A stretch of DNA of 64,000 bases from the IMG/VR virus record IMGVR_UViG_3300046615_000261, positions 32,001 to 96,000 of that record. One strand, written 5' to 3'. Position numbers and translations under genes: made by a program. The notes beneath the pieces were generated by a model. It was given only the letters and a program-made list of their open reading frames with translations. It was not told the origin of the DNA and did not search any database. This document shows positions 1,211-52,673 of the stretch, one piece after another. The stretch comes from a virus. Lineage: Duplodnaviria > Caudoviricetes. Each line of letters opens with the position of its first letter. Positions within the stretch are counted from its first letter, which is position 1.

Positions 1211-1624
1211 ATGCTCCTGAATGAAATCAAACTTGGTACCAAATCTGACCCTGAAGCCCTGAAGGCTTTCATGGCTGACATGCGCGCGAACACTGAAGCG
1301 CATCCATTCGCTCGTGGAATGGTAATTCATAATGACTCCGTCGGGGTTGAGGTATCAATCTTTGACGGCAAGATTCACCTGAGCTCGATCATGAGCTTTG
1401 TTCAGAAGAACGCTGGTGAAGCTTCGAAGACTCTGAAATTCCTGACTGATCTTGCTGACAAGCACCAGGTGATCATGGATCTGGCCGTTTCGCCGATCAA
1501 GAACGCCGGCGCTCGTGAAGGTAAGAGCCTTACGAAGGCGCAGCTCACGGCCTGGTACGGTAGGTACGGTTTCAAGAAGGCACGTGGCGATTACATGGAG
1601 CGCCCACCTGGCGCCGCTGCGTAA
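1211..1624 (+). CDS. GNAT-family acetyltransferase with MLLNEIK leader
   Basis: GEASKTLKFLTDLADKH and LTAWYGRYGF fit GNAT motifs A and B. Confidence 0.7.
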   Translation: MLLNEIKLGTKSDPEALKAFMADMRANTEAHPFARGMVIHNDSVGVEVSIFDGKIHLSSIMSFVQKNAGEASKTLKFLTDLADKHQVIMDLAVSPIKNAGAREGKSLTKAQLTAWYGRYGFKKARGDYMERPPGAAA

Positions 1625-1627
1625 ATA
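1622..1627 (+). promoter_or_regulatory. Late promoter box TAAATA
   Basis: Overlaps the TAA stop; 25 nt before ATG 1653. Confidence 0.6.
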
Positions 1628-1652
1628 GAGCTGCACAATTAGGAAATTTCAA

Positions 1653-2237
1653 ATGCATCCAGTAGTCATCATGGCTTACGAGCCATCCGACGCGATCGAC
1701 GCGGCCGTTGCTGCTCTCGGTGAAGCGGGTCTGACAGCCATCGTCCTGAGCACCGCGAAGGCGAAGCTCGTCGATTTTCTCGGCGCTCTCGCCGCTGACG
1801 AAAAACCGGCAGACGACGAAAATATCGATAATTCCGGCGCCGAAGAAACCGGCGGTGGAGAACCCGCAGCTGATCTGCCTCCTGAGCCAAAGGGCAAGAC
1901 TGACCCAAAGGTCGAAGAATCCGTGATCGTTGACGGCGAGAAGATCGCAGTCAAGATCGTTGAAGGCATGACTGCTGAACTCTTCCCAAGCGGCCTGATG
2001 GTCGGTACGAAGACCGCGTACGCTCTGAACGAATCGCACTTCGCTTTCTGGCCGGCCGGTTCCGAAGGCATGTTCGATCTGACGCATGACATCCAAATCG
2101 AGCGCAATGGCCGTGCTATGTTCACGGCTGCTACGATCAAGGAAGCGGTCGCAGTACCATTCCTGAACCTTGGCATCGAGCTCTGGAAGAAGCTCAATGA
2201 GGTCGAACAAGAAACTGAACTCACAACGGACGTCTAA
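1653..2237 (+). CDS. Hypothetical late protein with acidic linker (194 aa)
   Basis: ORF behind a late box; phage codon usage. Confidence 0.7.
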   Translation: MHPVVIMAYEPSDAIDAAVAALGEAGLTAIVLSTAKAKLVDFLGALAADEKPADDENIDNSGAEETGGGEPAADLPPEPKGKTDPKVEESVIVDGEKIAVKIVEGMTAELFPSGLMVGTKTAYALNESHFAFWPAGSEGMFDLTHDIQIERNGRAMFTAATIKEAVAVPFLNLGIELWKKLNEVEQETELTTDV

Positions 2238-2440
2238 TGCTCGTTCAATATACACAGATCAGTGCTCTCACGCCTGACCAGAAGCAACGTCTGAAGGCGA
2301 CTTTCCGAGGCGCCGTGCTTGAAGGTATGCCGCACGTTCAGTTCGAAGGCCTGACTCTCAGCGTTGCTGAGCTGGCCTCTTTCCAACGCATGTGGGAAGC
2401 TGAACAGCGCCAAGGTGGTCGTCAGACCTTGTTCGGATAA
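2237..2440 (+). CDS. Hypothetical protein (67 aa)
   Basis: TAATG coupling to upstream gene. Confidence 0.6.
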   Translation: MLVQYTQISALTPDQKQRLKATFRGAVLEGMPHVQFEGLTLSVAELASFQRMWEAEQRQGGRQTLFG

Positions 2441-2443
2441 TAA

Positions 2444-3646
2444 ATGACATCTCCAGTCGATACCTCAGTTAAGTATTTCAGCTCGAATATGCCGAACGCT
2501 CCAGTGCTGAGCGGCACTGCCGGCGCGCTGATTGCATTGCTGGACGCTTGTCTCAAGGACGGCTTCAACTCGATTACACCGACATCGATTGTGGTCGCTG
2601 GAGGTATCGCTACTTTGAGCTGGGCCTCTGGTACGTTCGCGGCACTGCCAGACTCGGTAGTGCTGATTGCTGGCGTGACCGACAAGACCGGCCTGAACGG
2701 TGAGCAGAAAGTGCTCACCAAGAGCGCGCTGTCAATCACGTTCGCAACTGCTGAGACTGCTGGCACTGCAACGCTCTCCGCTGCCACGGTGAAGATCGCG
2801 CCGCTTGGATGGCTGAAGCCTCAATCAGGTACCAACCTTGCAGCGTACCAATCAAGTGATTCACTGTCTACCAAGATGCTACTGCGTGTTGATGACACCG
2901 GAACCACGATGGCCCGCGTTGTCGGATACGAGTCCATGACCGATGTGAACACTGGAGTGAACCCATTCCCTTCAGCGGCTCAGATGTCAGGTGGCGGTTA
3001 TTGGTCGAAGAGCGTGAATGCGAGCGCCGCTACCGTGAATTGGTCCTTGCATGGCGATGGAAGAATCTTCTATCTTAACGTTCAGCCAGGATCGTCGAAC
3101 GCTTTGGTGAATCAAATTTGTTCAGGCAAGGTCTTTGGAGACGTGATTCCGACCAAGCCGGGCGGAGACCCTTATGCCTGCTGCCTGAACTACGCCCAGA
3201 CCGCAACGATTGGTAACCAGACCGATGGCGCGTTCGGCGCGTCTGGCGACTTCAAGTTCGCCATGCCTCGCGATTTCACAGGATTGGGGTCTTCAGTGAT
3301 GTACGGCGCGTGGACTTTGACTGGAAATGGCGGAGTTTCAGGTCTAGCGAACGCCCTTGGCTCGTTCCCTTCCCCAATTGACGGCGGCCTTTGGCTGTGC
3401 AAGAAGTTCCTGTACACTTCTATTCTCAGTTCCCCTCGTGCCATTTTCCCAGGCCTCCTGAACGTCGTCCAGTCTGGCGTTTGGAATTCCTTCAAGCAAG
3501 GAGACTCAGTGCCGGGGTCTGGGATTTACGCGGGTAAGAACCTGATGGCGGCAACGACATCTGACAACTCGACGGCGTTCACCACAGCTTCTACTGCAGC
3601 TAACACTGGCATCATCTTTTTCGACGTCACAGGCCCTTGGAGATAA
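2444..3646 (+). CDS. Tail fibre / virion structural protein
   Basis: N-terminus MTSPVDTSVKYF...LSGTAGALIALLDACLKDGF is typical of a proteobacterial phage tail-fibre family; Gly/Ser/Thr-rich. Confidence 0.7.
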   Translation: MTSPVDTSVKYFSSNMPNAPVLSGTAGALIALLDACLKDGFNSITPTSIVVAGGIATLSWASGTFAALPDSVVLIAGVTDKTGLNGEQKVLTKSALSITFATAETAGTATLSAATVKIAPLGWLKPQSGTNLAAYQSSDSLSTKMLLRVDDTGTTMARVVGYESMTDVNTGVNPFPSAAQMSGGGYWSKSVNASAATVNWSLHGDGRIFYLNVQPGSSNALVNQICSGKVFGDVIPTKPGGDPYACCLNYAQTATIGNQTDGAFGASGDFKFAMPRDFTGLGSSVMYGAWTLTGNGGVSGLANALGSFPSPIDGGLWLCKKFLYTSILSSPRAIFPGLLNVVQSGVWNSFKQGDSVPGSGIYAGKNLMAATTSDNSTAFTTASTAANTGIIFFDVTGPWR

Positions 3647-3647
3647 G

Positions 3648-4274
3648 TTGATCCACAGTCCGTTCCATACCGTTGAGAACTTCATCTCTCCACTGCAATG
3701 TGAAATCATTGCAGATCGCCTGAAGCTGAATGTTCCAAGCTACGCTGAAGATGGTCAGCCTCTGAAGTACGAATGCCGTGTTCCCGTTGAACTGGCAGGA
3801 AATATCGCATCAGAGCTGGACGCCCTGTCACCGCTGCTTGAGCGACGTTATGGTGCTCAGATTTCCGCTGAACCAGCGCTGTTGTTCCAGCAGTACTGGG
3901 AGAACGCGAAAGCTCCAGCAGAACAGATCGGCTGCGAGAACTCAAAGTTCTCACGGAAGAAGTGGATCAAGACGAAGGACGTCGATCTGGTCGGATTTAT
4001 CTGGCTGAAGTCGTTCCACAACTCGGTTCCGCTCGATCCTCGCCACGAGGTCTATGGCGGCAAGCTCGAATTTCCTGGGTACAACTTCAGCCTGACGCCG
4101 GTCCGCGGCACGCTGGTAATCTTCCCAGCTACTCCGCACTTCATCACGGCCACGTCGCACGTGATGCTCGGTTCTCTTGAGCAAATCAAGCTGAACATCA
4201 AGCTCAAGGACTGGCAGTACCAGCCTGAGAGTTTTCCAGGCACGTACCAAGAGTGGTTCTTCCCTGAAGAGTAA
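3648..4274 (+). CDS. 2OG-Fe(II) oxygenase-fold protein, catalytic residues apparently lost
   Basis: YGGKLEF and P.RGTLVIFPA scaffold present; HxD, distal His and Arg appear replaced; TTG start. Confidence 0.65.
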   Translation: MIHSPFHTVENFISPLQCEIIADRLKLNVPSYAEDGQPLKYECRVPVELAGNIASELDALSPLLERRYGAQISAEPALLFQQYWENAKAPAEQIGCENSKFSRKKWIKTKDVDLVGFIWLKSFHNSVPLDPRHEVYGGKLEFPGYNFSLTPVRGTLVIFPATPHFITATSHVMLGSLEQIKLNIKLKDWQYQPESFPGTYQEWFFPEE

Positions 4275-4295: not shown

Positions 4296-4297
4296 CG

Positions 4298-4334: not shown

Positions 4335-4347
4335 CGACACTGAAACG

Positions 4348-4965: not shown

Positions 4966-4967
4966 TC

Positions 4968-14269: not shown

Positions 14270-14275
14270 TATTTA
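14270..14275 (-). promoter_or_regulatory. Late promoter box TAAATA
   Basis: Overlaps the TAA stop of the 1601-aa gene; 30 nt before ATG 14239. Confidence 0.6.
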
Positions 14276-17200
14276 GATAACGATCAGTTTGAGTTCCGAG
14301 GCTTGCGCCTGACGGAACCTGAATACGCGATTGTTCACGCGTTCAACGACTGGAACTTGTTGTGGTGCTGCATCAGTTGGACGCCACAGGTAGATGGTCG
14401 GGATCACAGCAGTCGGTTGGCTGAACGAGATTTCGATCAGCTGCGAACCTGGAGCATCAATGACCATTGGAGTGACGAAGTCAGCGTACAGCACGCCACC
14501 ACCTGGCAATGCGCCGAACGGTCCAGTACCAACCGGGTACATCATCGTGACGGTGTCTGGAGGAGTGTCCAGGCCGTCAGCATCGTACCCGTACATGCTG
14601 TACCCGTTAGTGTCTACTGCTCGAGCCGTGAACGCCTCAACGATTGCCGTAGCAGCCGAGGCTGTTGGCTCATCCTTCACGCTGATACCCAAGCCAATTG
14701 CTGGAATACCGAAGCCGAACCCGGTCGGCGTGTAATTGATTGCATCATCGTCAGAGAGACGCTGAACGAATTCTTCCAGCGTCGTTCCGGTGATGTCGCC
14801 GTCTGTCAGGTAAGGATTAACCAAACTCGACAGATCGAGCATCGTGGCTTGCTCTTGCGGAGTCAGATCCACTGGATCCTTCAGCGCGAGCATCTTCGCG
14901 GTGATGAAGTGATCAGTCAGAGCTTGGCCAGCATCGTAGTAGCCGTCTACACCGTCTTCACCATCGTACGGCATGTTGTCGTAACCTGGCAAGAATCCGG
15001 TGAATGGGCCGTCGCTCATCACGACGTCCATGACGTTCGAGTAGTTCGCCTTGATGTAGAACTTGTACGAATCAGTGACCGAGACATGCAGCACGTCTTG
15101 GTACATCGAGTCTTCATCCAGACCACCGCCACTGATCATGAACGCGATACCTTCGGTCATGTTCACGTGGATGTTCTCGTTCATGCCATTGCCGTACGTG
15201 ACGATCGTGGCTTCTGCGTTCAGCGGCAGGTACTTCGACGCGAACACCGAGTCCCAGCTGAAGATCACAGGTTCGTTCAGCGACGTGCCGATCGAGCGAA
15301 CAGTACCGACCAACTCACCTGTAGTAGCGGCTCGGACCACGACGTGCGTCGCAGGGTCACTGAACTCGGCCTGTGTAGTACCATCAAGCTTAGTGATCAG
15401 CGTTGGAATCCAGCCTCTCAGGACCCCTGTCTCAGGGCTCGTGTTCACCAATGGAACGCCAGAACCTGTGGTGTGATCGACGACGCGGAGGTCAGTCGTC
15501 TGCAGACCGAGCGGAGCGAACGACGCGAGCTGAACGGGGTCACGGGAATTGATCGAGATTCGGATGTCGTCTGAGCGAGTCCGGGAGAACAGAACGAAGT
15601 CTTCGTTCGTTGGAGCACGACCTGCAGAGGTGCGAACGATCGCAAGATCATGCCCCATCGCCAGGTTGTAGTCATCGGAAACGAGATCGACAACGAACGT
15701 CTTACCAGCCTCAGCGATTGGCAGACCGAACTGAACGAACTTGTCAGAGACGGAGAATTCTCCACCACCAACAACCGCACCGTTCCGGTACAGCGTCCAC
15801 CAATTGTCGTTCAGCGCCTTGATCGTGTACACGCACGAAGTCGTGTCATCACGGAGACGCTGGAGCGTGATCAGACCGATGCTCGATGTCCATGGAGAAC
15901 CTGCGCCGAGGAGCAGACCATCTTCGAACACGGCCACTTCTGGCGTGACGAACTTGAAACCAATCTTGCCGTTCCAGTACCACTCGTTGATCGATGCTGG
16001 CTTGTTCCAGCCAGAGACCGAACCGTGCACCAAGAACATTGGACGCTTTTCGTACGTCTCGAACAGGAACGCATCAGGAGCGAGCAATCCGGACATGCCT
16101 TCATGGATCGTCCAGTGGATGTTCAGCTCAGTGTTGTAGTACGAGCGACCGTCTGTCGCCATGTTCACGGTGATCGGGGTGCTCAGAACAGGAGAACCGT
16201 TGTGAACGCCAGTCGTGTGAACACCTTGAATGGAGTACGTACGTGGACCAATCATTTGAACTGTCCACTTTGCAGGAACAGTTTCAAAGAAGTTATCAGC
16301 GCGTGGAACCAGGCGTGGAACGCGGTGCGAGACGATGCCAGCTGGAGTCGTTTGAACTGGTGGCTGATTCAGAACAGTCCAGCCAATCACGTCACCGCCG
16401 TCAGTCACGTCAGTCATGACTTCACCAGCTTCACCGAGGAGCTGAACGTCTGCGTACGATGTCGGGCACGTTGGGTTCCCCGAGTCAACATTGATGTTCA
16501 GCCAACTGATAGTCGCTGGCGGATGATCGCCTGTGAACGCTGTTTCTTCGAATACTCCGTTGCTCAGGCGAGTCAAACGAACTGTCGTGTTCCCTGCACC
16601 CGCAGCCAGCGTGAACATGGCTTCGTACCATTCACCATCGACGAGAGTGTCGGTCGAGATGAATTTTGATTCGGTGCCAATGTATGCTACTGGGCGGCGA
16701 GCAGAGTCGAATGCTGCTTCACGGCGTGGATTGATCGCGATCGTGTCGCCATCAGTCAGGAATTCGAACACCGCAGCATCGTCAAGAAGGGCTTCATCGA
16801 CCTTGAATTTGATCTTGATCGTCTCAGCGAAGAACGGATCATCGAGCTCCTTTACGAGAACGGCGTGGATTTCATTGTCTTGTGAATCAACGTTCACACC
16901 CTGGCCGTATGGAGTGCTCACGAACGTGAACAGATCTGGTCCAGATTCGCGAGTCCAAGAAGTGAAGTCCTCAGTGTACAGTGCAGTCGCTGTCTCGCTC
17001 CAAGTTGAGCGAGCACGGGCTGCAATGAATGGCTTACCAGCTTCTACGAGCTTGAACGAGATACCTTCCTCTTCATTCGAGTACGAATCGCCTACATTGA
17101 TCGTGTCAACGAGCATCCAAGACGTTTCGTCTTCCGAGTAGAACTCGAGAGCGAATGAGCTCGAGTACCAAAGTTCCAAGTCAGCGTTCACATCGGTCGA

Positions 17201-29833: not shown

Positions 29834-31129
29834 CTACTTCCGAACGTACTTGAAGATTGCGTGCCTTCCGTTCTTCTCGACCTCGCCAGACTTGTAGTCG
29901 TCACCCAGAATCTGATCGGCGATCCGCTTGTAGATTCGAGCACGTGAGTTCTTCGTGTCAAGCTTCGCCAGAAAGCTGATGATCTTTGGCTTGCGCTCAC
30001 GAACGAATTGTTCGAACGCCTTCTTGACCATCGCACCGACTTCGAACTCATTCCCAGATCCGGTCTTGCTGGTTGTTTCCCAAGTACCGTTGTCTTCGAC
30101 GAACTCAACGTCCCACTCAGAGAGCGAGTAATCCAGAGCTGCGGCCTTGAAAATGATTGAGCGATCGCCAATCTTAGCTCTCGCTCGGAAAACGTTCTCT
30201 GCGTCTGTGACGACTTTGAAATCAACCGCAGTATCAAGAGCCTCGTTCATCTTCCGAACGTACCTGTACACATGGTGCGTGCTAACTTCCTCTTTTTGTT
30301 CAGTGTACTTGTCGCCAAGGACTCGCTTCGCCATCCGCTGGTAGATCTTTGTGCGAGCGTTCTTCTGATCGAGCTTCGCTGAGAACTCAACCGCTTCTGG
30401 CTTACGGGTCTGAATGAACTCGGTGAATGCTTTCTTGATCAGCGAACCGACTTCAAGCTCCCCACCTGAACCAGTCGCTTCAGTGCTCCACTCACCGTCT
30501 TCCGTGACTTCATAGAAGTCCGTGTTCCAGAGCTGTGGCTTTGCTGCAGGCATCTCGCATTCAGCGGCAAAGATCACACGGCGACCGCCGATCTCGGCTT
30601 CAACAACGAACAGATAAGGCTTGTCAGTCGTGACCTTGTAGTTCACCTCAGTGTCGAGCAGTTCAGCGATCTTCTTTGGCTTGTCCTTCGTGACCGTGAA
30701 TACGACAGCATCATCCGGCACCCATCCACCAGAGTCGCTATTGCCGTTATCGTCGTTCATGATCGAGTACGTGTACCCTGGTGGCGTGAATCGCTTCACC
30801 ATCCGCGTGTAAGTAGCAACACGGCCTCGATCAGAGTGCTTCGCTGTGAACTCAATGTACTTCACGTTCCGCGACTTCACGAACGCCAGGGCAATCTCTT
30901 TGATCGTGCCCATCACTTCGAATTCACCACCAGAGCCGGTCATCTTTGTAGTCGCGCCCTTCTTTCCCTGCTCAATGAAATCAGCGTTCCAGTAGCCAAC
31001 TGTGCCACCTTCACCTGCTGAAAATCTAATGTCACGACCATTGCTGGAGAACACGGCCTCGAACTCGTCTGTCTCGTCAACAGTGATTTCGTAATTCTGA
31101 GTCTTGTTGAATAGTTCAAGCAGCTTCAT
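29834..31129 (-). CDS. Triple-repeat GNAT-like protein, MKLLELF leader
   Basis: Three copies of W..DF..TGSG(G/N)E.EV...F.A...R..Y.R; linkers KKIAELLD and RKMNEALD. Confidence 0.7.
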   Translation of the reverse strand: MKLLELFNKTQNYEITVDETDEFEAVFSSNGRDIRFSAGEGGTVGYWNADFIEQGKKGATTKMTGSGGEFEVMGTIKEIALAFVKSRNVKYIEFTAKHSDRGRVATYTRMVKRFTPPGYTYSIMNDDNGNSDSGGWVPDDAVVFTVTKDKPKKIAELLDTEVNYKVTTDKPYLFVVEAEIGGRRVIFAAECEMPAAKPQLWNTDFYEVTEDGEWSTEATGSGGELEVGSLIKKAFTEFIQTRKPEAVEFSAKLDQKNARTKIYQRMAKRVLGDKYTEQKEEVSTHHVYRYVRKMNEALDTAVDFKVVTDAENVFRARAKIGDRSIIFKAAALDYSLSEWDVEFVEDNGTWETTSKTGSGNEFEVGAMVKKAFEQFVRERKPKIISFLAKLDTKNSRARIYKRIADQILGDDYKSGEVEKNGRHAIFKYVRK

Positions 31130-31611
31130 ACTTCAAGGCCCTTCTTCACGAATGCAAAGTCAGTTGAGAAAACGTAATCGCCGCCGTTCGCATATTTCTT
31201 AGGACCTTCGAAAGCGTCGTACTCAGTGAATAGTTTCTTAGCAAGCTTGCGGTACACTGAGGCACGATTGTCTTTCTTGTTCTCGTCCTTATCAGCCGCG
31301 AATCTGACCACATCTGGGTCGTATTTCTCAAGGAACTTCTTGGTCATGCTAGCGACAAAAGAAAGAACCTGCATCTCGCCGCCCTTGCCTGTCTTGTCGT
31401 AATACCGGTCATGCTCATCTTCTTCAGAGAATGTGAGAACCCAGTACGGACCGCCTGGGCCGATCTTGTGATGATTGTACAAACCTAACTTGTATTCAGC
31501 AAGGAAATGGAATGCGCGATCATCGATGATAGCTCTGGCTTCAAAGGTCCTTGAATTATTTTCAAGGATTTCGTACTCGACCGAGCGGTCCATCAATTCA
31601 TTCAGTTTCAT
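31126..31611 (-). CDS. GNAT-like paralogue, MKLNELM leader
   Basis: KTGKGGEMQVLSF...RFAAD...NRASVYRKL. Confidence 0.7.
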   Translation of the reverse strand: MKLNELMDRSVEYEILENNSRTFEARAIIDDRAFHFLAEYKLGLYNHHKIGPGGPYWVLTFSEEDEHDRYYDKTGKGGEMQVLSFVASMTKKFLEKYDPDVVRFAADKDENKKDNRASVYRKLAKKLFTEYDAFEGPKKYANGGDYVFSTDFAFVKKGLEV

Positions 31612-32080
31612 TTTTCTTCAGATAGTGTCGGATTTCTGAATTGCTGTACCCGAGAAGTTTGCCAACCTTCGCGTCTGGATGATCCGCCGCGGTGCTGTTC
31701 TGATAGATCTTCGCGAGTTGCCGGCCACGCCATTCCTCTCCAGGCAGCGTAATAAAGTATGTAGAGGTCACGCCGTTCTCAGTAGCGTCTCCCCACTCCT
31801 TGTCGACCTTCTTGACCAGAACAAGCTTACCAGACTGAACGTGCTTCTCGAACGCCGCGTACTCATCATTGTCGAGCACAGCCGCTGGCTTCAAACCACG
31901 GAGCATCAAGTTCAGGTGCTTACCTTCGTGCGGGCCGATCTTGCTGTTATCTGGATCGGCTTTTCGCTTGGTCTCCAGCCAGTCAATGAATTCTGGAGAT
32001 GCATCATCGTCGTACGGAACATCGGTGATCTTGTGCACATCGTGACCAAACTTCGCTTCGAACAGTTCAATTAGCTTCAC
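31598..32080 (-). CDS. Unknown-domain protein, MKLIELFEA leader
   Basis: Leader shared with neighbours but different body (LRGLKPAA, GKLLGY). Confidence 0.7.
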   Translation of the reverse strand: MKLIELFEAKFGHDVHKITDVPYDDDASPEFIDWLETKRKADPDNSKIGPHEGKHLNLMLRGLKPAAVLDNDEYAAFEKHVQSGKLVLVKKVDKEWGDATENGVTSTYFITLPGEEWRGRQLAKIYQNSTAADHPDAKVGKLLGYSNSEIRHYLKKNETE

Positions 32081-32604
32081 AGATCTTTCCTAACCATGTA
32101 CAGAAGTTCGTCCTTCTGATCGTGCTCTTGGCGGCTCTTCATCAATGAAGCGACCTCTGGTGATTTCTTCGCCAGATGCACGCCATCCTCGTACTCACTG
32201 GTGCGAGAGAACTTCTTGATCAGCGATTTGTAGAATGATGTTCGGCTGCTTTCAGTCTTACGTGAGCTGAACGAGATAACAGCTGGACGTTCCTTGGCAG
32301 CGAACTCCTCCATGACCTTGATGACTGTCGAGAAGATCTTCAGCGCGTCGCCACCGTTCGTGATTGCGTACGCTGTTTCACCCGTCTCTTTGTCGACCCG
32401 AGAGAACATCACCTCAGCCACAGAGAACGAGTCGTCGCTCATGTAATCTTGTTCGTCTTCGTCCTCGAGCTTAACGTACGTCATCGCGAACTCTACGTGA
32501 ATCTGGTCACCATCCTCGATCGTGAATCTGGTTTCAGCGCCTTGGCTTCCCCAATAATCAAGCTCGAACTCGTAGCATGAGTTCAGGAGTTCATTCAGCT
32601 TCAT
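32077..32604 (-). CDS. GNAT-like paralogue, MKLNELL leader
   Basis: Start corrected to ATG 32604; TNGGDALKIF...SFSS...SRTSFYKSL. Confidence 0.7.
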   Translation of the reverse strand: MKLNELLNSCYEFELDYWGSQGAETRFTIEDGDQIHVEFAMTYVKLEDEDEQDYMSDDSFSVAEVMFSRVDKETGETAYAITNGGDALKIFSTVIKVMEEFAAKERPAVISFSSRKTESSRTSFYKSLIKKFSRTSEYEDGVHLAKKSPEVASLMKSRQEHDQKDELLYMVRKDL

Positions 32605-33076
32605 TTGAGTCCTTCTTCGTGTACGTGAAGTACGAGTACTCACCATCACTGCTCATGTTCACGGACAACGCGTAATCTTTGAACAGCCGTGTACCAAGCT
32701 TCTTGTACAAGTCGGCACGATTATCTTTGCTTCCTTCTTTTTCTGCACCGAAGCGGATCATGTCTGGATTGAACTTCGCGAGAGTTTTCTTGATCATAGA
32801 CGAGATGAACGAAAGAACCTGCATTTCACCACCGTTTCCGGTCTTGTCATACACACGACGCGGGTAAATCTCGCCATCAGCTCGCGTTGACATCCTCAGT
32901 TCACTGAACTCAATGTACACGTACGGATGGCCACCGCTTTCTTCACCAGCGCTATGGACAGCTGCAGAGAACAGGATCTCTCGATTCTCGATCACGGCCT
33001 TCACCATGAATGTTTTATCGGTGTCGCGTTCAATCGTGTACTTGATCTCACGGTCCATCAATTCTTGAAGCTTCAT
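32591..33076 (-). CDS. GNAT-like paralogue, MKLQELM leader
   Basis: KTGNGGEMQVLSF...RFGAEK...NRADLYKKL. Confidence 0.7.
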   Translation of the reverse strand: MKLQELMDREIKYTIERDTDKTFMVKAVIENREILFSAAVHSAGEESGGHPYVYIEFSELRMSTRADGEIYPRRVYDKTGNGGEMQVLSFISSMIKKTLAKFNPDMIRFGAEKEGSKDNRADLYKKLGTRLFKDYALSVNMSSDGEYSYFTYTKKDSNEAE

Positions 33077-36000: not shown

Positions 36001-36675
36001 TGGCTCGCGTTCCAGTGGACCATTCTCATCGACGTCAGCAGGAACAACTTCCATTGGGTAGCTGTCAAGGCCGGTCGAAGCGGTGAATGCGTGCACACCG
36101 TTCGTGAACGACGAGGACTCAGCGTTCAGCGCGTACAGATCCATTACAACGTCACCGACTTGGTACGTCTTCTGTGGTTGGCCGAAACGAGTGCTCAGGA
36201 CGCGATTCGCGACGAGGAAGAATTGTTCCTTCCAGTTCGCGTTGTTCGGGTCATTCCAAACGATTGTCAGACCGGACAGGTCAACACCGCGGGAGTCGAT
36301 CACTCGTTCCGAAGTCTTGATCGAGGTCATCTTCACGAGGCCACGGACTGGGATGTTCCGAGTTGCCTTGTACGAAATGAGCTTCGCGAGACGCAGGATC
36401 GATTGCTTACGCTGCGCGGTCGTGATGAAGTTCTCATGGCTGACCATGTCGACACGGTACGCGAGCTGTTCAGCAACGTACGCGAACATCTCGAGCATGG
36501 CGATCAGTTCAGAGGACTGGATCAGGTCATTGAATACTTCTGCGTAATAGATCCGCAGATAGTCAACGAGCGATTGCTTGATCGTGTTCGCGTCGAACGA
36601 GGTGAAGTTCACCTGTGCGAAAGCTTCGTAGATCTTTTCCCAGCTCTCGGCTGAGTTTGTATTGCGAAATGCCAT
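33076..36675 (-). CDS. gp6: Baseplate wedge subunit, T4 gp6-like
   Basis: FTSFDANTIKQSL.DYL, ENFITTAQRKQSILRLAKLISY, GAASESIEHVR..AP..Y..QNR.V. Confidence 0.85.
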   Translation of the reverse strand: MAFRNTNSAESWEKIYEAFAQVNFTSFDANTIKQSLVDYLRIYYAEVFNDLIQSSELIAMLEMFAYVAEQLAYRVDMVSHENFITTAQRKQSILRLAKLISYKATRNIPVRGLVKMTSIKTSERVIDSRGVDLSGLTIVWNDPNNANWKEQFFLVANRVLSTRFGQPQKTYQVGDVVMDLYALNAESSSFTNGVHAFTASTGLDSYPMEVVPADVDENGPLEREPDMSAPLSLLYANDGIGDGSDYTGFLMYVKQGMLARIDYTLADKLPNRRVEFLPNNVNHTDVWVQKLDEQQNISERWKQVSTVNEQNLIFNDDRSTRSKYEVDTMENDQIAIVFGDGDFVNAPQGLFRFWMRSSANRAIVIQKNKIVNEPMTFTYVSNTGNTQSCSVTFSLTTTLQNGAASESIEHVRQSAPSTYYAQNRIVNGQDANTFMLKDPSILRLKAVNRTFAGQPKYIDWNDASGSYENVNIFGDDLVMRYELGLNSLTTSLSGQALIDSVIEPLLESNGVINAMLHISATDPATQGVVSSPRRSFIEDNRAGLYKAPTGGYVKLLDGSTADGSLKEKTAMQGLIDRHWYGEPLEYVEGQNSQIYARIPDPDLFPKDDSRIYAAAVPRTIDGVNKFPPGDIGSGLQPIAEQDYFALRYNRYVTGIGSGTITILNRPQGAVQGEVWTIEVAADGQTLNVRSNLRGTFPTGSVGTTYDITPTGYQTPVPFFLITQSSILFEPGDAFVLDTGVSGAPVGRSTSSHGGAYRNNGVSSTPGAINLNGWWEILGYSQLPHYSGGQVINGDELLFTMDDSVAMKQHSWLVFVRKIRQQPTNNVIGYEVHHRDLKLTIQSPSTKFWFNEVDQILDQDTKKRVFDNIKILRSNLDSTGAPLGKSQVYDVVGAVKSGEGLIDFHKLQVVPTDLLQEDSSGDLVPDRLLQYETFSNDSYEYFELAIPTALLDPIDDALKYADAKNATYLPGAFVDVDMVFGRRQRMPSIEAAQADSGLDFMWQHFAPSTNIIDPSVTNIHDAYVLTQGYYDSVISFLRGLTTSAPVAPTPLDLRSAYGYLLKNKMLSDTIVLHPGKLRLLFGSLAEPQFRAKFKVVRAPGATLTNERIKEELLNTMNTYFDISNWDFGETFYVTELIALMHQRLPSEIASVVLVPLYSTNSFGDMFTVECGFDEILQSAAQLTDIEIVEALTPTIIRQVR

Positions 36676-36699: not shown

Positions 36700-36705
36700 T
36701 ATTTA
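36700..36705 (-). promoter_or_regulatory. Late promoter box TAAATA
   Basis: 24 nt before ATG 36675. Confidence 0.65.
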
Positions 36706-36974: not shown

Positions 36975-37217
36975 ATGAGCCGCTTCTTCCTGTTTAAGAT
37001 GAAGGACCTGGAAATCCCGCCGTTCTTCACGGTAGTGACCACCTCTGGTTGCCTGGAACCGCCGCCGATCGACGCGGATGGCGAGGTCGTTCAGGTCGAG
37101 TGCGACGAGAACTCCCTCGCGTTCTGGCTGCTCGGCATCGGCAAAGTCTGGATGTCCGAGAACCCGGAAGAAGGCTGGTACGCGGTCGAGCTCACCCCAA
37201 CCCCCATGGCGAACTAA
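36975..37217 (+). CDS. Hypothetical protein, tandem paralogue A
   Basis: MSRFFLFKMKDLEIPPFFTV... Confidence 0.75.
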   Translation: MSRFFLFKMKDLEIPPFFTVVTTSGCLEPPPIDADGEVVQVECDENSLAFWLLGIGKVWMSENPEEGWYAVELTPTPMAN

Positions 37218-37225: not shown

Positions 37226-37453
37226 ATGAGCCGCTTCTTCCTGTTCAAGACGAAGGACCTGGAGATCCCGCCGTTCTTCACGGTGCTCGATGGTACGCTC
37301 GATCTGGAACCGCCGATCGCCGCGAAGGGCGATATCGTTCACATCGAGTGTGACGAGAGCGCCCTTACGTTCTGGCTGCGCGGTATGCTCTGTAAAGGCA
37401 TCTGGATGGCCGAGAACACTGAAGATGGTTGGTACATCGAGTTGCCAAACTAG
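37226..37453 (+). CDS. Hypothetical protein, tandem paralogue B
   Basis: SD AAGGA, ATG 37226, MSRFFLFKTKDLEIPPFFTV... Confidence 0.75.
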   Translation: MSRFFLFKTKDLEIPPFFTVLDGTLDLEPPIAAKGDIVHIECDESALTFWLRGMLCKGIWMAENTEDGWYIELPN

Positions 37454-38154
37454 ACCAGTCCGAGCTCGCGCTTGAAGCGGAACTGCACGATCGCCCAGTA
37501 GTTCTGCAGGTCTTTGCTGACCTCGCCCTTGACCTTTTCCCATGCAGCTTCTGCATCGGCAAGGGTCTTCCCGGCTTTCTGAGCCGTGTTCGCGAGCATC
37601 TTCTTGTGCGGTGAAAGATCGCTCCGGAACTTGGCATCCTTCTGGACTGGGTAATCCTGCTCGCCGCTGATGTACGGATCCGAGCGCTTCATTGCGCCTT
37701 CGTCCACGGTCACGCGTCGATTCAGCTCGAACAGGATGTACTTCTCGGCACGACCCAGGCCTGTTTCGAACTCACGAACGAGGTATGCATCGGCGAATCG
37801 CTTGACCATTCGTCTGTACAACTTCACGCGCGACTCTTCGGACTTCTTAGCCGAGAATTCCATTCGCTTCGGATTGTGTTCCTTGATCAGTGAACGGAAG
37901 CAATTCAGAACGAACTGGAAAACCTCGACTTCATTGCCGCTTCCAGTAAGATCGGTCTTTACTTTCTGCTCACCATCGGCCCAGACATCATCAGTCAATT
38001 CAGAGAATAGAACTTCCCAAGTGATTCTGTCTTGGTGCGCGACAAATCGAATGACGCGATCGCCGATCTTCTTTTCAATCTCAAACATTCCATGATTGCG
38101 GTCACGAACGGTACCACCGTGATCAGCAGCTTTAAAAAGTTCATTCAGCTTCAT
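37450..38154 (-). CDS. GNAT-like paralogue with extra C-terminal helical domain, MKLNELF leader
   Basis: Start corrected to 38154; TGSGNEVEVF...SRVKLYRRM; then VDEG|AMKR and a second domain. Confidence 0.7.
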   Translation of the reverse strand: MKLNELFKAADHGGTVRDRNHGMFEIEKKIGDRVIRFVAHQDRITWEVLFSELTDDVWADGEQKVKTDLTGSGNEVEVFQFVLNCFRSLIKEHNPKRMEFSAKKSEESRVKLYRRMVKRFADAYLVREFETGLGRAEKYILFELNRRVTVDEGAMKRSDPYISGEQDYPVQKDAKFRSDLSPHKKMLANTAQKAGKTLADAEAAWEKVKGEVSKDLQNYWAIVQFRFKRELGLV

Positions 38155-38615
38155 TTGTCTTTCCTTGTCAGGAGGAATACCGTGGATTCGTACCCAACGC
38201 GGCCTTGCCATGCCTTTTCGACTTCCTGAGTGTCGAAATCATTTGCGAATCGCTTGATCATCCGTTTGTAAAGCTGAACACGTGATTGCTCGGTTTTAAA
38301 CGCACTAAATTCCATGGCCTTTGGATTGAACTTTTGAATGAACTCTCGCATGCACGCCATCACGAACGACATCACTTCAATTTCATTTCCACTACCAGTC
38401 AAGCCGTGATTTGATTTCTCGCCAGACTCGGTTTGCTCAGAGTCTTCGCTGAACGAGATCACGTATCTCACACCCAAATCTTTTTCAACGGTGAACGTGA
38501 TTTCACGGCCGCCAATCTGCTTCGTGACTTCAAAGACAGGGTCATATCCGTTCTTACGATCTACGGCAACTTTACCGCCGTGATCTTCTTTATCAAACAG
38601 CTCATTCAGCTTCAT
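38151..38615 (-). CDS. GNAT-like paralogue, MKLNELF leader
   Basis: TGSGNEIEVMSF...SRVQLYKRM. Confidence 0.7.
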   Translation of the reverse strand: MKLNELFDKEDHGGKVAVDRKNGYDPVFEVTKQIGGREITFTVEKDLGVRYVISFSEDSEQTESGEKSNHGLTGSGNEIEVMSFVMACMREFIQKFNPKAMEFSAFKTEQSRVQLYKRMIKRFANDFDTQEVEKAWQGRVGYESTVFLLTRKDK

Positions 38616-39028
38616 TTGTCTTTCCTTGTCAGCGCGAACAGGTCAAGGCCATGTTCACCATCATCTGGAGACAATTCGTAGTCGCCACCGAATCGCTTCA
38701 CCAAATGGTGGTACACCGTTGATCGCGACTTGTCGCTGAATTCCGACCCAAAGACAATTCGCTCTGGGTTTCGCCGCTTAATGAAGTCGCGCATGCACGC
38801 CACCACGAATGACATCACCTGGATTTCATTCCCGCTACCTGTCATATCGACAGATACCTTATCACCACGCCATTCAGCGAATGAAACTTCCCAATCGTCT
38901 CTGTCGCTACGGTCTGCAGAGAAGGAAATCAGTCGATCACCAATCATCTTCTTCACGTTGAAGTGGTGCTCTGAGTTCTCAACTTCGGCGCCGTGATCAG
39001 CAGATCCAAAAAGCTCATTCAGTTTCAT
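38612..39028 (-). CDS. GNAT-like paralogue, MKLNELF leader
   Basis: TGSGNEIQVMSF...SRSTVYHHL. Confidence 0.7.
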   Translation of the reverse strand: MKLNELFGSADHGAEVENSEHHFNVKKMIGDRLISFSADRSDRDDWEVSFAEWRGDKVSVDMTGSGNEIQVMSFVVACMRDFIKRRNPERIVFGSEFSDKSRSTVYHHLVKRFGGDYELSPDDGEHGLDLFALTRKDK

Positions 39029-45099: not shown

Positions 45100-45105
45100 T
45101 ATTTA
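45100..45105 (-). promoter_or_regulatory. Late promoter box TAAATA
   Basis: 23 nt before ATG 45076. Confidence 0.65.
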
Positions 45106-45245: not shown

Positions 45246-45734
45246 ATGACCGAAACAACAACCAAGCCCAAGACAGTTAAGCCAGCCAAGAAAGAGCGTT
45301 CAAAGACCACCCAAGGTCATTACGTAAAGAACGCCGAGCTGCTCGCTGAATTCCATATCTGCAAAGCCAAGGGCGAGCTTTCCCCCCTGATGGCGAAGTA
45401 CCTGATGATGATCGCTGAACGGTACTCGTACCATCAGTGGTTCGCAGGATACTCTTTCCGTGAAGACATGGTTTGCACCGCTGTGGTGAATCTGTGTGCG
45501 AACTGGCATAAGTTCAATCCCGAGAAGTCCGATAATCCGTTCGCTTACTACACGACGGCCTGTTATCGCTCTTTCCTATCGTACCTTGACGCTGAAAAGA
45601 AAGAGCGTACGATTCGTGATGAACTCCTGATTGAAGCTGGCGCGAACCCGTCGTTCAACTATCAGGCTCGGCACGGTACTTCGGGTAAGACTTCTGATGA
45701 TACCGCATTCTCTGGCGGTGGTGGAGACGATTGA
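45246..45734 (+). CDS. gp55: Late-transcription sigma factor, T4 gp55-like
   Basis: HYVKNAELL, IAERYS..FAGYSFREDMV, FNPEKSDNPFAYYTTACY.SF. Confidence 0.9.
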   Translation: MTETTTKPKTVKPAKKERSKTTQGHYVKNAELLAEFHICKAKGELSPLMAKYLMMIAERYSYHQWFAGYSFREDMVCTAVVNLCANWHKFNPEKSDNPFAYYTTACYRSFLSYLDAEKKERTIRDELLIEAGANPSFNYQARHGTSGKTSDDTAFSGGGGDD

Positions 45735-48426: not shown

Positions 48427-50166
48427 ATGAGCTCCTCCCTTTATTTCCGCGAACTGTCGATTCGGAACTTCCTCTCGTTCGGCCAGAATGAAACGATCAT
48501 CGATCTGTCTGAGGCCGGTACGATTGAAGTCATTGGACAGAACTTGGACAAGGGCGGCTCGAACGGTTCAGGCAAGACGACGATCATCAACGCGATCTGC
48601 TACGCGTTGTACAACAAGCCGTTCGACAACATCTCGCTTCAGCGGCTGATCAACAGCACGAACGCGACGAAGAACACCTTGATGGAAGTGAAGCTTTCGT
48701 TCGAACGTGCTGGTGACGAGTACGAGATCACTCGTGTTCGTGGTGAGCATTACACGATCCGTCTGACGAAGAACGGTGAAGACATCACGCCAGGTAAGGG
48801 TGTTGCCGAGTGCGATGCCTTGATCGAGAGCGTGATCGGTATCAGCTACGAGTTGTTCACGAAGACGATCATCTTCTCGGGGAACGCGCAAGCTTTCCTC
48901 GAGCTGCCAGTCGCTCAGCAACGTCTGCAGATCGAAGAGCTGTTCAACATCACGTTGCTCTCTGAGAAGGCGAAGGTCCTTCGTGAGAACATCAAGGTCA
49001 CTGAAGGCGACATCAAGGTCCAGAAGGCCGTCGTGAAGCAGCAAGAAGTTGCTGTCGAGCTGTACAAGAAGCACATCACCGAAGCCGAGCAGCGAATCAC
49101 TAAGTGGGATCAGACTCGTCAGAAGGACATCGCCGAGATTGAGAACACTCTGGCAGTGGTCGGTACTGTTGACTTCGAACTGGAGCAGCTCTTGCACGAC
49201 GAGCGCTCGACGCTCGTTCAAGAAGGCGCGTACCTGGCTGCGAAGCTTGCTCCTGCCCGCAAGGATAATCAACAGCTTACTGCGGCTGTTGAGAAGCTTC
49301 TCGGCGAACAGGCTCATCTGGCTGACGCGACCTGCCCGTACTGTGCACAGAGTTTCGCCGATGCTCCAGCACGACTGGCAAAGATCGAAGACGAAATTGA
49401 TGTGAAGGGTAAGCTCCTGATCCAGGTCGAGGCTGATGTTCAATCACTGACCGAGAAGGCACGTGAACAGCAAGCGCGTCTGAAGGAAGTCGAAGCCGGT
49501 ATTCAGCACTCGAATCTGAACGAGCTCCTGTCTGCCCGTGAGAATGCATCTGTCCTTCGCACGAAGATGAACGATCTGAAGAACGCCGTGAATCCTCACG
49601 TCGAAGCTCTGGAACGCCTGCTTGCCGAAGACTGCAAGGAAGCCGATCATGCAAAGGTCGATGCCCTGCACAAGCGGCTCGAGCACATGCAGTTCCTGAT
49701 GAAGCTCTTGACGAACAAGGACTCGTTCCTCCGTCGCCGAATCATCAACAAGACGATTCCGTTCCTGAACGATCGAATCAACGGGTACACCGCTCAACTC
49801 GGGCTGCCACACATCGTTCGATTCGATGCTGACATGAGCTGCACGGTCTCTGAGTTCGGCCGTGAGCTGGACTTCGGTAATCTTTCAGCTGGTGAAAAGA
49901 AGCGAGTGAACGTCGGGCTGGCTCTTGCCTTCCGAGACGTGCTGCATCACATGCACGCGAAGTCGAATCTGATGCTGGTCGATGAACTCGACGGTCAGCT
50001 CGATGGTGGCGGTATTGATGCGGTGATTCGAATCATCAAGGACAAAGCCCGAGACGAAGAGATGTCCGTGTTCATTATCTCGCACCACCCGAACGTGTCT
50101 GGCCGACTGGATCGAACGCTTATCGTTTCGAAACAACATGGCTTCAGTACGATCAGCGACGGCTAA
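48427..50166 (+). CDS. gp46: Recombination ATPase subunit, T4 gp46/Rad50-like
   Basis: Walker A GSNGSGKTT, zinc hook CPYC, signature LSAGEK, Walker B LMLVDE. Confidence 0.93.
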   Translation: MSSSLYFRELSIRNFLSFGQNETIIDLSEAGTIEVIGQNLDKGGSNGSGKTTIINAICYALYNKPFDNISLQRLINSTNATKNTLMEVKLSFERAGDEYEITRVRGEHYTIRLTKNGEDITPGKGVAECDALIESVIGISYELFTKTIIFSGNAQAFLELPVAQQRLQIEELFNITLLSEKAKVLRENIKVTEGDIKVQKAVVKQQEVAVELYKKHITEAEQRITKWDQTRQKDIAEIENTLAVVGTVDFELEQLLHDERSTLVQEGAYLAAKLAPARKDNQQLTAAVEKLLGEQAHLADATCPYCAQSFADAPARLAKIEDEIDVKGKLLIQVEADVQSLTEKAREQQARLKEVEAGIQHSNLNELLSARENASVLRTKMNDLKNAVNPHVEALERLLAEDCKEADHAKVDALHKRLEHMQFLMKLLTNKDSFLRRRIINKTIPFLNDRINGYTAQLGLPHIVRFDADMSCTVSEFGRELDFGNLSAGEKKRVNVGLALAFRDVLHHMHAKSNLMLVDELDGQLDGGGIDAVIRIIKDKARDEEMSVFIISHHPNVSGRLDRTLIVSKQHGFSTISDG

Positions 50167-50169
50167 ATA
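50164..50169 (+). promoter_or_regulatory. Late promoter box TAAATA
   Basis: Overlaps the gp46 TAA; 22 nt before ATG 50192. Confidence 0.65.
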
Positions 50170-50191
50170 GCCGTTATACAATGGACTGATC

Positions 50192-51019
50192 ATGAAACTC
50201 TCCGAAATCAAAGCCCCAAAGAAGGACGAAGTCGTTCGCGACTCACAAGGTCGACCACTGCGTGGTCTCGCCAAGGAACGTGCTCTGCAGCAGCGGAAAC
50301 TCGACAAGAACTTCAAGGACTACGATATCAAGGATCATCGGATCGGGGTCGCAAAGGTCGTGAAGGAAGCAGCAATCAAGGAACTGGACAAAATTGCTGC
50401 CGAGCGCTTCGGCAGCTTTGGGTTCGCTGATCTAGAAGAAGACCAGGCAGCGCGACTGATCTACATCGAACGCGCGAACAAAATCGCTGAAAAGGAGTTT
50501 GGTGAGTTCGGTCTTATGTCATGCAACGCCACTGAAATTGCGCAGATCATTAACGCCAATCCTGCGCTGATTAAGAAGGTGAACGAAGAAGAGCTCGAAT
50601 CAAAGACTGCAGAGGACCTGTGGTCGGAGAACTCGAGCTCTGCCTCGAAGTACATCAGCACGGCGACTTATCAGGTCCGTCCAATCAAGGACAGCAAGCC
50701 AGTGAAGTACGAAGCTTTCTCTGTGATCAGCACGACGCGGAAGCCGTACGGCACGTTCACAGCTGACGAGCTGAACGCAGCCCTGAAGCCGATCCGTCCG
50801 AATCAGACTCCTGACGCTGAAGGATTCACGACGTACATCGACCCTGTGAAGGTCGACGCGTTCCAGTACTCTGGTGACCCAGTGAAGGTTGATCTCGGCA
50901 AGGGTGATATTCAGACAGCCGACGATAGCGACTACATTGTTCGCACTGTTGACGGGAACAACTTCGTGTACCGCATTGAAGAAGCCGGTGACTTTGAAGC
51001 TGGACTGAAGAAAGCCTGA
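50192..51019 (+). CDS. Unknown late protein, MKLSEIK leader
   Basis: Leader; internal duplication KIAAERFGSFG / KIAEKEFGEFG; VKEA and VNEE motifs. Confidence 0.7.
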   Translation: MKLSEIKAPKKDEVVRDSQGRPLRGLAKERALQQRKLDKNFKDYDIKDHRIGVAKVVKEAAIKELDKIAAERFGSFGFADLEEDQAARLIYIERANKIAEKEFGEFGLMSCNATEIAQIINANPALIKKVNEEELESKTAEDLWSENSSSASKYISTATYQVRPIKDSKPVKYEAFSVISTTRKPYGTFTADELNAALKPIRPNQTPDAEGFTTYIDPVKVDAFQYSGDPVKVDLGKGDIQTADDSDYIVRTVDGNNFVYRIEEAGDFEAGLKKA

Positions 51020-51021
51020 TC

Positions 51022-51798
51022 ATGAAACTTGCCGATCTATTCGAGGCAGTCGTCTCCGATTCTGCCCAAGCACTCAAACTTCTTGGTCTCGCATCCGATG
51101 CGTCCATGACCGACGTGAAGGCTTCATACCGCAAGCTTGCGCAAAAGCTTCATCCTGACAAGAATGACGGCAGCGCTGAAGCTACCGAGAAGATGAAGAT
51201 GGTCAATGCGGCGAATGACTTCCTACTGAAGCATGGGTTGTCAAAGGCGACAGCTTCAGCCCAGCCTCCTGCAGAGGATGTGAAGTTCACCAAGGAAGGC
51301 ATCAAAGAGGTCGACGATAAGCTAGAAGTGATTCTTAAGAATCCGGCATGGTTCGACAAGAAGGGCCGCTCAAAGTACATTGGACCAGTTCTTTTTGCAC
51401 GTGAGCGCCTCAAGGTTGCCGAACAGCTGATCGAAATTCTCCCAGCGTACGAAGCTGTCATGAAGAAGATCGTTGCCTCTTGGAAGAATCGTTTCGAGAA
51501 GCCAGAACCTTTCAAGGCTGCAGCGAAGGAATTTGAAGAGTTCTTCAAAGAACATAAGCCAAATGATCTTCAAGCCCTTCTTAATCGCATTGCAAAGAGA
51601 CAGCGCACAGCAGGGTGCACCTACCTTAAGGTGGAAACCCCACTTCGTAACAAGGTCAGCGACGAGCTCAGCGAGATCCTGAGTTCTCGTGAGAAGATCA
51701 AGGAAGCGGTAGTTGCAGTGGACAGAACTCCTGAGCAACGTGAACGTGCTGCGAAGGCTTCTGCTCGAATGAAAGCTCAGTGGGGTTCGACTTTTTAA
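51022..51798 (+). CDS. J-domain (DnaJ-like) protein, MKLADLFEA leader
   Basis: LLGL...DVKASYRKLAQKLHPDKN with intact HPD. Confidence 0.85.
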   Translation: MKLADLFEAVVSDSAQALKLLGLASDASMTDVKASYRKLAQKLHPDKNDGSAEATEKMKMVNAANDFLLKHGLSKATASAQPPAEDVKFTKEGIKEVDDKLEVILKNPAWFDKKGRSKYIGPVLFARERLKVAEQLIEILPAYEAVMKKIVASWKNRFEKPEPFKAAAKEFEEFFKEHKPNDLQALLNRIAKRQRTAGCTYLKVETPLRNKVSDELSEILSSREKIKEAVVAVDRTPEQRERAAKASARMKAQWGSTF

Positions 51799-52673
51799 TG
51801 AAGCTCTCTGAAATCAAACTCTTTGAGGCGCCACTCGCTGACGTCTCGTACCACAAAGCTGCAACGACTGGATCGTTCTCCGCGAGCGACTTGAAGCTGA
51901 TCAAGAAGTACATGGAGAGCGGTCACTACAAGGACAAGCTCAAGGGCCTGCCTTTTGATCTGTACTTGTACATCGTAGACAACGGTGACGAGGGTGCAGC
52001 AGCGGCAGACAGCTATCCTGAGGGTGAAGTCATTCCGTCGATCTGGAAAGATCAGACGCGCAAGCTTTATCACAAGACCGACAGAGAGCGGATTGAGGGT
52101 GGCTATGAGCCTGATCCTGACGGTCTGGACTTCAGCGTTCAGCCATTCCCAGCGATTTTCGCGGCTGTTCGTGAACGAATTCAGAAGAATCCGAACAGCG
52201 TGCACTTCTTGCTTGGCGACAACTACTCAGATGAGCACCAGATGGGTGTGACACCGTGGATCGTCGCGCACAGACTCTGCCATTGCTATTCTGTTGGTGG
52301 CGGTGTGAGCGTCCCGCCTGAGTTGATCGCAGCGTACAAGAAGAAGAAGGGCATTCCAGCAGGCGAAGCGTTCACTGCAGGCTGGAAGGCTCTGCAAGCT
52401 TCACTGACATTCAAGAGCGCAAAGTCGAACAAGCTTATTGAGTCTGAAACCTCCGTCGAAATGAACGCGCAGTTCCTTGTCACTGGAGATATTCCACTTG
52501 ATCTTCCTGCGTACAGCGCGAAACTGAAGGAGCTCAGCGACGTCAGTGGTTTCACTCTGACCGATGATGAAATCGTTCAGCAGACTGAGATCTGGAACAA
52601 TGAAGTTAGCGAGTTCAAGGATCGCTGCAAGAAGGCCGCTGAACGTATTCGCGGCAAAGTGTTCTACGTGTAA
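51798..52673 (+). CDS. Unknown late protein, MKLSEIKLFEA leader
   Basis: TAATG coupling, start 51798; TPWIVAHRLCH motif. Confidence 0.7.
   Translation: MKLSEIKLFEAPLADVSYHKAATTGSFSASDLKLIKKYMESGHYKDKLKGLPFDLYLYIVDNGDEGAAAADSYPEGEVIPSIWKDQTRKLYHKTDRERIEGGYEPDPDGLDFSVQPFPAIFAAVRERIQKNPNSVHFLLGDNYSDEHQMGVTPWIVAHRLCHCYSVGGGVSVPPELIAAYKKKKGIPAGEAFTAGWKALQASLTFKSAKSNKLIESETSVEMNAQFLVTGDIPLDLPAYSAKLKELSDVSGFTLTDDEIVQQTEIWNNEVSEFKDRCKKAAERIRGKVFYV

Follow-up and report, generated by a model that had tools for sequence, protein, structure and literature searches.

Leader-bearing genes of the window

We analyzed a stretch of 64,000 nucleotides (nt), here called the window, from the record IMGVR_UViG_3300046615_000261 of an uncultivated phage, in which twelve genes begin with almost the same short leader, M(K/L)Lx(E/D)(L/I), a probable capsid-targeting signal. 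The window corresponds to bases 32001-96000 of one IMG/VR virus contig of 234,547 base pairs (bp), with a guanine-cytosine content of 54% and an estimated completeness of 66%. Positions below are those of the window unless they are called genome positions, which refer to the whole contig. An earlier note on this DNA had listed twelve N-termini with the shared leader, and all of them were found where it had placed them (lengths in amino acids, aa):

1211..1624, plus strand: orphan, 137 aa, MLLNEIK; TAAATA box 28 nt upstream
29834..31129, minus strand: family-A triple repeat, 431 aa, MKLLELF; internal repeats start KIAELLD and KMNEALD
31126..31611, minus strand: family A, 161 aa, MKLNELM
31598..32080, minus strand: orphan unrelated to family A, 160 aa, GTG start, MKLIELFEA
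32077..32604, minus strand: family A, 175 aa, MKLNELL; only member above the Pfam cut-off for DUF6934
32591..33076, minus strand: family A, 161 aa, MKLQELM; first gene after the gp6-like wedge gene in its late operon
37450..38154, minus strand: family A, 234 aa, MKLNELF; C-terminal extension
38151..38615, minus strand: family A, 154 aa, MKLNELFDK; member whose structure was modelled
38612..39028, minus strand: family A, 138 aa, MKLNELF
50192..51019, plus strand: orphan, 275 aa, MKLSEIK; opens a three-gene late operon, TAAATA 28 nt upstream
51022..51798, plus strand: J-domain protein, 258 aa, MKLADLFEA; PF00226, E 1.7e-13, 50.9 bits
51798..52673, plus strand: orphan, 291 aa, MKLSEIKLFEA

The J-domain protein at 51022 also has the HPD tripeptide, in the context KLHPDKN. 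For the 51798 protein, a scan of IMG/VR found no relative and the ESM Atlas gave no usable match.

The leader had been said to sit on unrelated bodies. This holds for the contig better than for the window. Grouping by BLAST after removal of the first 12 residues joined seven of the twelve window genes into one paralogous family (family A, including one triple repeat), and therefore the window has six body types and not twelve independent ones. Genome-wide, the bearers fall into family A, one pair (genome 126640/127133) and ten singletons, so that at least 12 BLAST-unrelated families carry the tag.

Occurrence of the leader and its conservation as a peptide

A six-frame scan of the whole contig with the pattern M[KL]L.[ED][LIM] gave 19 matches, and 18 of them are at the starts of open reading frames of 88-431 aa, a few codons past the upstream stop. 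A rough estimate from residue frequencies predicts fewer than one N-terminal match by chance. The excess of the leader is real and far beyond chance, and inside the other proteins of the contig the extended motif shows a chance-like scatter only, family A excepted.

Every tag has LxE or IxE at residues 3-5 or 4-6, and several add LFE ending at residue 8 or LAE ending at residue 10. Besides the strict form there are starts shifted by one residue (MKLLQEML, MKLIQEIQ, MKMLQELL, MNLLKEFS, and MQLLKEYL of the prohead protease) and near variants (MRLDEL, MILQEI, MILSEL, MNLTEI). Together with the FLAE-type starts described below, these forms are found on about 30 genes. A nineteenth open reading frame, beginning MKLNELV and 88 aa long (genome 232128-232394), overlaps one in another frame that the gene caller favoured.

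Synonymous codons vary among the leaders: AAA and AAG for lysine, CTG, CTC, CTT and CTA for leucine, GAA and GAG for glutamate. At residues shared between leaders of different families we counted 161 identical codons against 177 expected from genomic codon usage. Codon identity is therefore no higher than codon usage predicts, and selection acts on the peptide. Conservation at the nucleotide level, as a promoter, RNA or recombination signal, was rejected as unlikely on the same count.

Late promoters and the restriction of the leader to late genes

The hexamer TAAATA is present in 58 copies on the two strands of the contig, 38 of them no more than 60 nt upstream of a gene start on the same strand. 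The distance to the start is mostly 27-43 nt and the context is (C/G)TAAATA, which by its sequence is a T4-like late-promoter pattern. A gene was called late if it had a TAAATA box upstream, or if it began no more than 40 nt after a late gene on the same strand; this assignment, an inference from promoters and operons, covered 102 of the 331 genes in our own gene calls for the contig. Three of the boxes precede most of the leader-bearing genes listed above:

36700..36705, minus strand: TAAATA box upstream of the gp6-like gene, which is followed by five tag-bearing genes
45100..45105, minus strand: TAAATA box heading a baseplate operon whose last genes are three tag-bearing family-A genes
50164..50169, plus strand: TAAATA box, promoter of the 50192-52673 operon

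The leader is confined to such units. The 18 strict tags and the 10 relaxed ones belong without exception to late genes (Fisher p = 2e-10), as the earlier note had proposed when it placed its genes behind TAAATA boxes or inside late operons. None of the 229 non-late genes has a tag, and the motif is thus not equally common in early genes, the outcome that the note had named as speaking against its idea. When K/R/Q at residue 2, L/I at residue 3, E/D at residue 5 and L/I/M/F at residue 6 are required together and paralogues are collapsed, the comparison is 11 of 95 late genes with 0 of 229 non-late genes. In many late genes no Shine-Dalgarno site is obvious, and the start codon lies at the stop codon of the preceding gene or next to it.

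Family A: fold, homologues and internal repeats

It is useful to consider separately the family that supplies most of the bearers in the window. One member of family A scored 32.4 bits with DUF6934 (PF22028), above the gathering cut-off of 27, and the others scored 12-19 bits. An AlphaFold model of the member at 38151..38615 was built on 35 homologues. Its core has predicted local distance difference test (pLDDT) values of 85-92, residues 1-6 are below 50, and residues 1-20 have a mean of about 50. The top Foldseek matches of this model were mostly GNAT proteins (E 3e-4, template-modelling score 0.45-0.50), and the top 50 of VIA-align were all GNAT, with Z of 7.5-8.9, which is of borderline height. 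As judged from the model, family A has the GNAT acetyltransferase fold, and it keeps the TGSGxE and R...Y motifs. The earlier note had spoken of two GNAT types; the model agrees with one of them, while the second, the 1211 gene product, could not be verified because it has no Pfam match and a sequence search of the PDB gave nothing meaningful. Although residues 1-6 have low pLDDT, E5 is invariant in the family, and the leader thus behaves like a linear motif in a flexible segment.

A word-based protein search with a family-A query returned only the query itself. When 1.84 billion representative proteins were searched with a profile, 5,294 family-A matches were obtained at E <= 0.001; many of these homologues carry 2-6 repeats, and the proteins reach about 1,950 aa. 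Motifs were counted in the best 150 of the 5,294 matches. There the N-terminal copies follow M-[KLIR]-[LI]-x-E-[LI]-[LF]-[DN]-K, with the glutamate in 64 of 65, and the internal repeats follow [LIV]-x-E-[LAV]-[FL]-[DN], with the glutamate in 179 of 180 and L, I or V two residues earlier in 172 of 180. Because the seven bearers of the window are paralogues and the motif also heads the internal repeats, the leader was inherited within family A and not acquired independently by each gene. The segment may belong intrinsically to the domain; alternatively, the internal motifs may be protease sites ahead of each repeat, at which polyproteins would be cut into single domains in the prohead.

Some family-A homologues start with MITFKQFLAE and others with MKLNELLDK, and LAE of the former aligns on LNE of the latter; on the same domain, therefore, two leader types replace each other. 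In Vibrio phage ValKK3 the family-A domain lies at the C-terminus, with NLTE|AFDRP before it. Upstream of this homologue, ORF275 of ValKK3 (L021:383-976) starts with MIEFLTEMDK, has LTE ending at residue 7 and a TAAATA box ahead of it; this start is another candidate leader, in a Schizotequatrovirus.

IPIII-type leaders and a variable slot between neck genes

Three genes outside the window start with the pattern xxxFxxFLAE. With F4, F7, L8 and E10 it agrees with the T4 IPIII targeting sequence at the key positions (an aromatic residue at 4, Phe at 7, Ile or Leu at 8, Glu at 10), whereas none of the twelve tag genes of the window has this form:

genome 118060: amidoligase, MISFKQFLAE
genome 122668: AAA ATPase, MLSFIDFLAE
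genome 139307: HD + AAA_33 kinase, MEKFEQFLAE

Two further tag-bearing genes, paralogues of each other, match the ADP-ribosyltransferase (ART) family ART-PolyVal (PF18760) at 21.1 and 25.0 bits, under its cut-off of 31.2, and a PDB sequence search with one of the two found nothing meaningful. The candidate cargo thus includes family-A domains, the J-domain protein, two ART-like proteins, the amidoligase, the AAA ATPase, the HD-kinase and several orphans.

A metagenomic contig of 376,608 bp that carries a family-A homologue encodes gp13-, gp14- and gp15-like neck proteins 47-65% identical to those of the phage analyzed here. Between gp14 and gp15 (L025:18660-19957) it has two genes starting with MITFKQFLLE and MKTFKQFISE. 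The same slot in the present phage (genome 115936-117281, past the window) is occupied by two unrelated genes starting with MKLLDLFESA and MILQEILDS. In this respect the slot is similar to the variable ip loci known from T-even phages. The amidoligase of this phage (genome 118060-119646) has a 12-residue IPIII-like leader, MISFKQFLAEKA, which is missing from its orthologue (L025:20782-21131); residue 1 of the orthologue aligns to residue 13 here, and its gene lies 19 nt from the preceding one. The leader is therefore an add-on that was gained or lost. For two other family-A homologues, the contigs were too short to reveal the neighbouring genes.

The phage and its T4-type genes

The gp6-like baseplate wedge protein (33076-36675, minus strand) is 44% identical to its counterpart in Ralstonia jumbo phage RsoM2USA and also matches XacN1, PA5oct and Rak2-like phages. 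The head and late-transcription genes that bear on the leader are the following:

45246..45734, plus strand: gp55-like late sigma factor (phrog_234, E 6.7e-31)
62108..63826, plus strand: T4 gp20-type portal (PF07230, E 1.3e-84)
63856..64464, plus strand: T4 gp21-type prohead protease, Peptidase_S77 (PF03420, 93.5 bits); the gene is cut by the window end at 64000
just beyond the window end: gp23 capsid protein (PF07068)

Since the portal, the protease, the capsid protein and the sigma factor are all of T4 type, the phage is, by its gene content, a jumbo member of the T4 superfamily, and sequence comparison places it in the RsoM2USA/XacN1/PA5oct branch. For 11 kb of the window, megablast found no match among cultured phages.

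Tag-like starts are present on head genes as well. The capsid protein begins with MQLNE and has LLE at 16 and 39, before its Gp23 domain, which begins at residue 51. The protease has LKE ending at residue 6 of its own N-terminus, and the gene after it begins with MKLLQE.

Comparison with T4 and other known systems

The T4 protein starts were read from NC_000866: MELITELFDE for Alt, MAKINELLRE for gp24, and MKTYQEFIAE for IPII and IPIII. In published work all internal head proteins of T4 enter the core by means of a capsid-targeting sequence. For IPIII, targeting depends on residues 4 and 7 of this sequence and processing on residues 8 and 10 (PMC9026906). Alt loses six residues by cleavage at ITE-6 (PMC5694885). 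The leader is the only similarity between the otherwise unrelated late internal proteins of T-even phages (PMC12373910; PMC3012670).

The earlier note had taken IPIII as its precedent. A closer one is given by Alt and gp24, and a true IPIII-type sequence is found on the three enzymes outside the window. As in Alt and gp24, the leader here is very short, LFD or LL comes after its hydrophobic-x-Glu site, and it belongs to late proteins of a phage with a gp21-type protease. Placed side by side, MKLNE|LFDK and Alt MELITE|LFDE have the same kind of triad and the same LFD after it. Alt is an ADP-ribosyltransferase that is packaged in the head and ejected; of the tag-bearing genes here, two are ART-like by their sub-cut-off matches. 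The differences are in length, the leader here being one residue shorter, and in number, since about 20-28 genes here have a leader of this type, with cleavage predicted from the sequence, compared with one or two in T4.

The likeness to IPI-III and the ip loci consists in a shared leader as the sole bond between unrelated late proteins, and in a variable cassette between conserved neck genes. However, IPI-III are small basic inhibitors of GmrSD-type restriction, whereas the candidate cargo here comprises enzymes and enzyme-like domains of 117-528 aa, whose genes are scattered over the late operons of a distant jumbo phage, those for baseplate and neck among them. The phiKZ-like giants (SPN3US, 201phi2-1) also have a gp21-related protease, together with many head-internal proteins and processing after Glu, both of which are predictions in our case. 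Their propeptides are mostly longer than 100 residues with A/S/G-x-E sites, in contrast to the short T4-like leaders described here.

Leader-bearing proteins in PA5oct virions

In the PA5oct record, 93 gene products among 461 coding regions are marked as detected by electrospray ionization tandem mass spectrometry of virions (PMC7318152). One of the products detected is EST35_0349, a family-A homologue of 141 aa that starts with MHLFELFDQ and has a late-type box upstream; if uncleaved, its N-terminus would give the peptide MHLFELFDQIEK. The pattern [M/V/L][KRHQ][LI]x[ED][LIVMF] at start codons gave ten matches on annotated PA5oct gene starts. Eight of the ten were detected (EST35_0150, 0175, 0205, 0230, 0238, 0349, 0380 and 0381; hypergeometric p = 7e-5), and two, EST35_0075 and EST35_0382, are not marked as detected. 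These eight virion proteins of unknown function thus have the same kind of N-terminus as the proteins studied here, the family-A homologue included. PA5oct has far fewer tag copies than this phage, and the part of its published description used here remarks on no shared leader (PMC7318152).

Interpretation and rival explanations

If the leader is a peptide signal restricted to late genes, then we can ask: What does it address? We think it rather probable that it is a T4-type capsid-targeting propeptide of the Alt/gp24 kind, which stands beside an IPIII-type leader on about 30 late genes, and an unusually large set of proteins is probably packed into the capsid. The tagged proteins would be made late, together with the head genes, and their N-terminal leader would give them affinity for the core of the assembling prohead. 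A gp21-type protease would then cut on the C-terminal side of the Glu in the hydrophobic-x-Glu triad (MKLNE|LFDK, FLAE|), and the mature proteins would remain in the head and exit with the DNA at infection. Core binding, cleavage, location in the head and injection are all steps that we infer for this phage. The idea of a portable capsid-targeting tag cut after Glu, advanced in the earlier note, is supported in its main part by the Peptidase_S77 protease, the L/I-x-E site, the restriction to late genes, the conservation at the peptide level and the PA5oct virion proteins; within family A the leader was inherited.

Several observations weigh against this interpretation. In the metagenomic homologues of family A the motif stands at the head of 179 of 180 internal repeats, and there it could belong to the domain itself and not be a leader. 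The family-A arrays lie inside two baseplate operons, away from the head genes, and RsoM2USA has no family-A genes at the corresponding baseplate positions. A propeptide of five residues would be one shorter than the six residues of Alt, the shortest T4 case found. The PA5oct pattern was widened after 0205 and 0380 had been seen; with the original, narrower one the count was 4 of 5 (p = 0.007). The virion spectra report presence in the virion and not compartment or processing. Finally, the same DNA pattern gives 12 copies here, 7 in RsoM2USA (control 1) and 0 in XacN1, and the tag is therefore lineage-specific and not general in the clade; the proteomics of RsoM2USA covers 10 gel bands only.

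The main rival, which we regard as unlikely, is that the tag directs proteins to the prohead or virion with no injection, either as accessory proteins of the core or scaffold that undergo degradation, as T4 gp67/gp68 do, or as components of the tail and baseplate. The degraded T4 core proteins gp68 (MLLIPETHE) and gp22 (MLKEQLIAE; both from NC_000866) do have similar N-termini, and the tag-like starts of the protease and of the gene after it, the position of the family-A arrays in baseplate operons and the PA5oct spectra, which give no location within the virion, would all suit such a role. It is harder to reconcile with the bodies themselves, which are folded enzyme-like domains (GNAT, J-domain, amidoligase, AAA ATPase, HD-kinase, ART-like), and with the nearest precedent, T4 Alt, which is an ejected enzyme.

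The leader might also have no targeting role, being an inherited structural element of family A and, elsewhere, a set of chance or weakly convergent N-termini that begin a helix. The paralogy of 7 of the 12 window genes and the retention of E5 and the hydrophobic position 3 in the internal repeats fit this explanation, and many proteins of bacteria and phages commonly begin with MK-. Nevertheless, we consider it quite improbable, because at least 11 other unrelated families bear the tag, all late, against 0 of 229 non-late genes; moreover, the leader segment is not confidently packed on the modelled fold, homologous domains can bear a T4 IPIII-like leader in its place, one orthologue lacks it, and tagged proteins are enriched in PA5oct virions. 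Least credible of all is a feature of messenger RNA or translation initiation, in which the 5' coding sequence would be favourable to late genes without a Shine-Dalgarno site. Many tag genes begin right at the preceding stop codon with no obvious ribosome-binding site, and lysine AAA or AAG as second codon is a known favourable context; yet synonymous codons vary freely, with identity not above the codon-usage prediction, and such a feature would leave the conservation of Leu3, Glu5 and Leu6 and the motif in internal repeats unexplained.

The capsid-targeting interpretation can be extended further, though here we are doubtful and offer it as a tentative possibility: about 30 proteins, nearly one third of the late genes, would be loaded by two interchangeable T4-like leaders, and the DUF6934/GNAT-fold family, with more than 5,000 representative clusters, would be a large unrecognised class of head cargo that is cut by the protease between repeats.

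Proteins carried in the head and delivered with the DNA act ahead of any phage gene expression, and those of T4 inactivate restriction systems and also modify the RNA polymerase. If the capsid-targeting interpretation is true, the T4 packaging tag is not confined to a few small inhibitors of T-even phages but would be a general, portable address label in distant jumbo phages, where it sits on about 30 proteins including acyltransferase-like, ADP-ribosyltransferase-like, amidoligase, ATPase, kinase and chaperone domains. Injected proteins of metagenomic phages could then be predicted by a simple rule, a late gene with a hydrophobic-x-Glu leader. DUF6934, with its thousands of members, would gain a first functional context, and the leaders could be used as packaging tags in the engineering of jumbo phages.

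Other genes of the contig

Two giant late genes, encoding 1,601 and 2,960 aa, lie on the minus strand at 14273-19078 and 19097-27979, downstream of TAAATA boxes; in RsoM2USA a gene for about 2,540 aa (7,623 nt) adjoins the baseplate wedge gene. Three paralogues of about 400 aa (window 2444-3646, genome 16788-18011 and genome 20278-21483) have the start MTSPVDTSVK in common, and each of the two outside the window is followed by a large gene starting with MA(A/T)HRYWR. By their sequence these pairs resemble a duplicated late cassette, perhaps of fibre or receptor-binding modules. Between the two minus-strand baseplate operons, two small tandem genes lie on the plus strand (36975-37217 and 37226-37453), and their starts, MSRFFLFKMKDLEI and MSRFFLFKTKDLEI, are near-identical.

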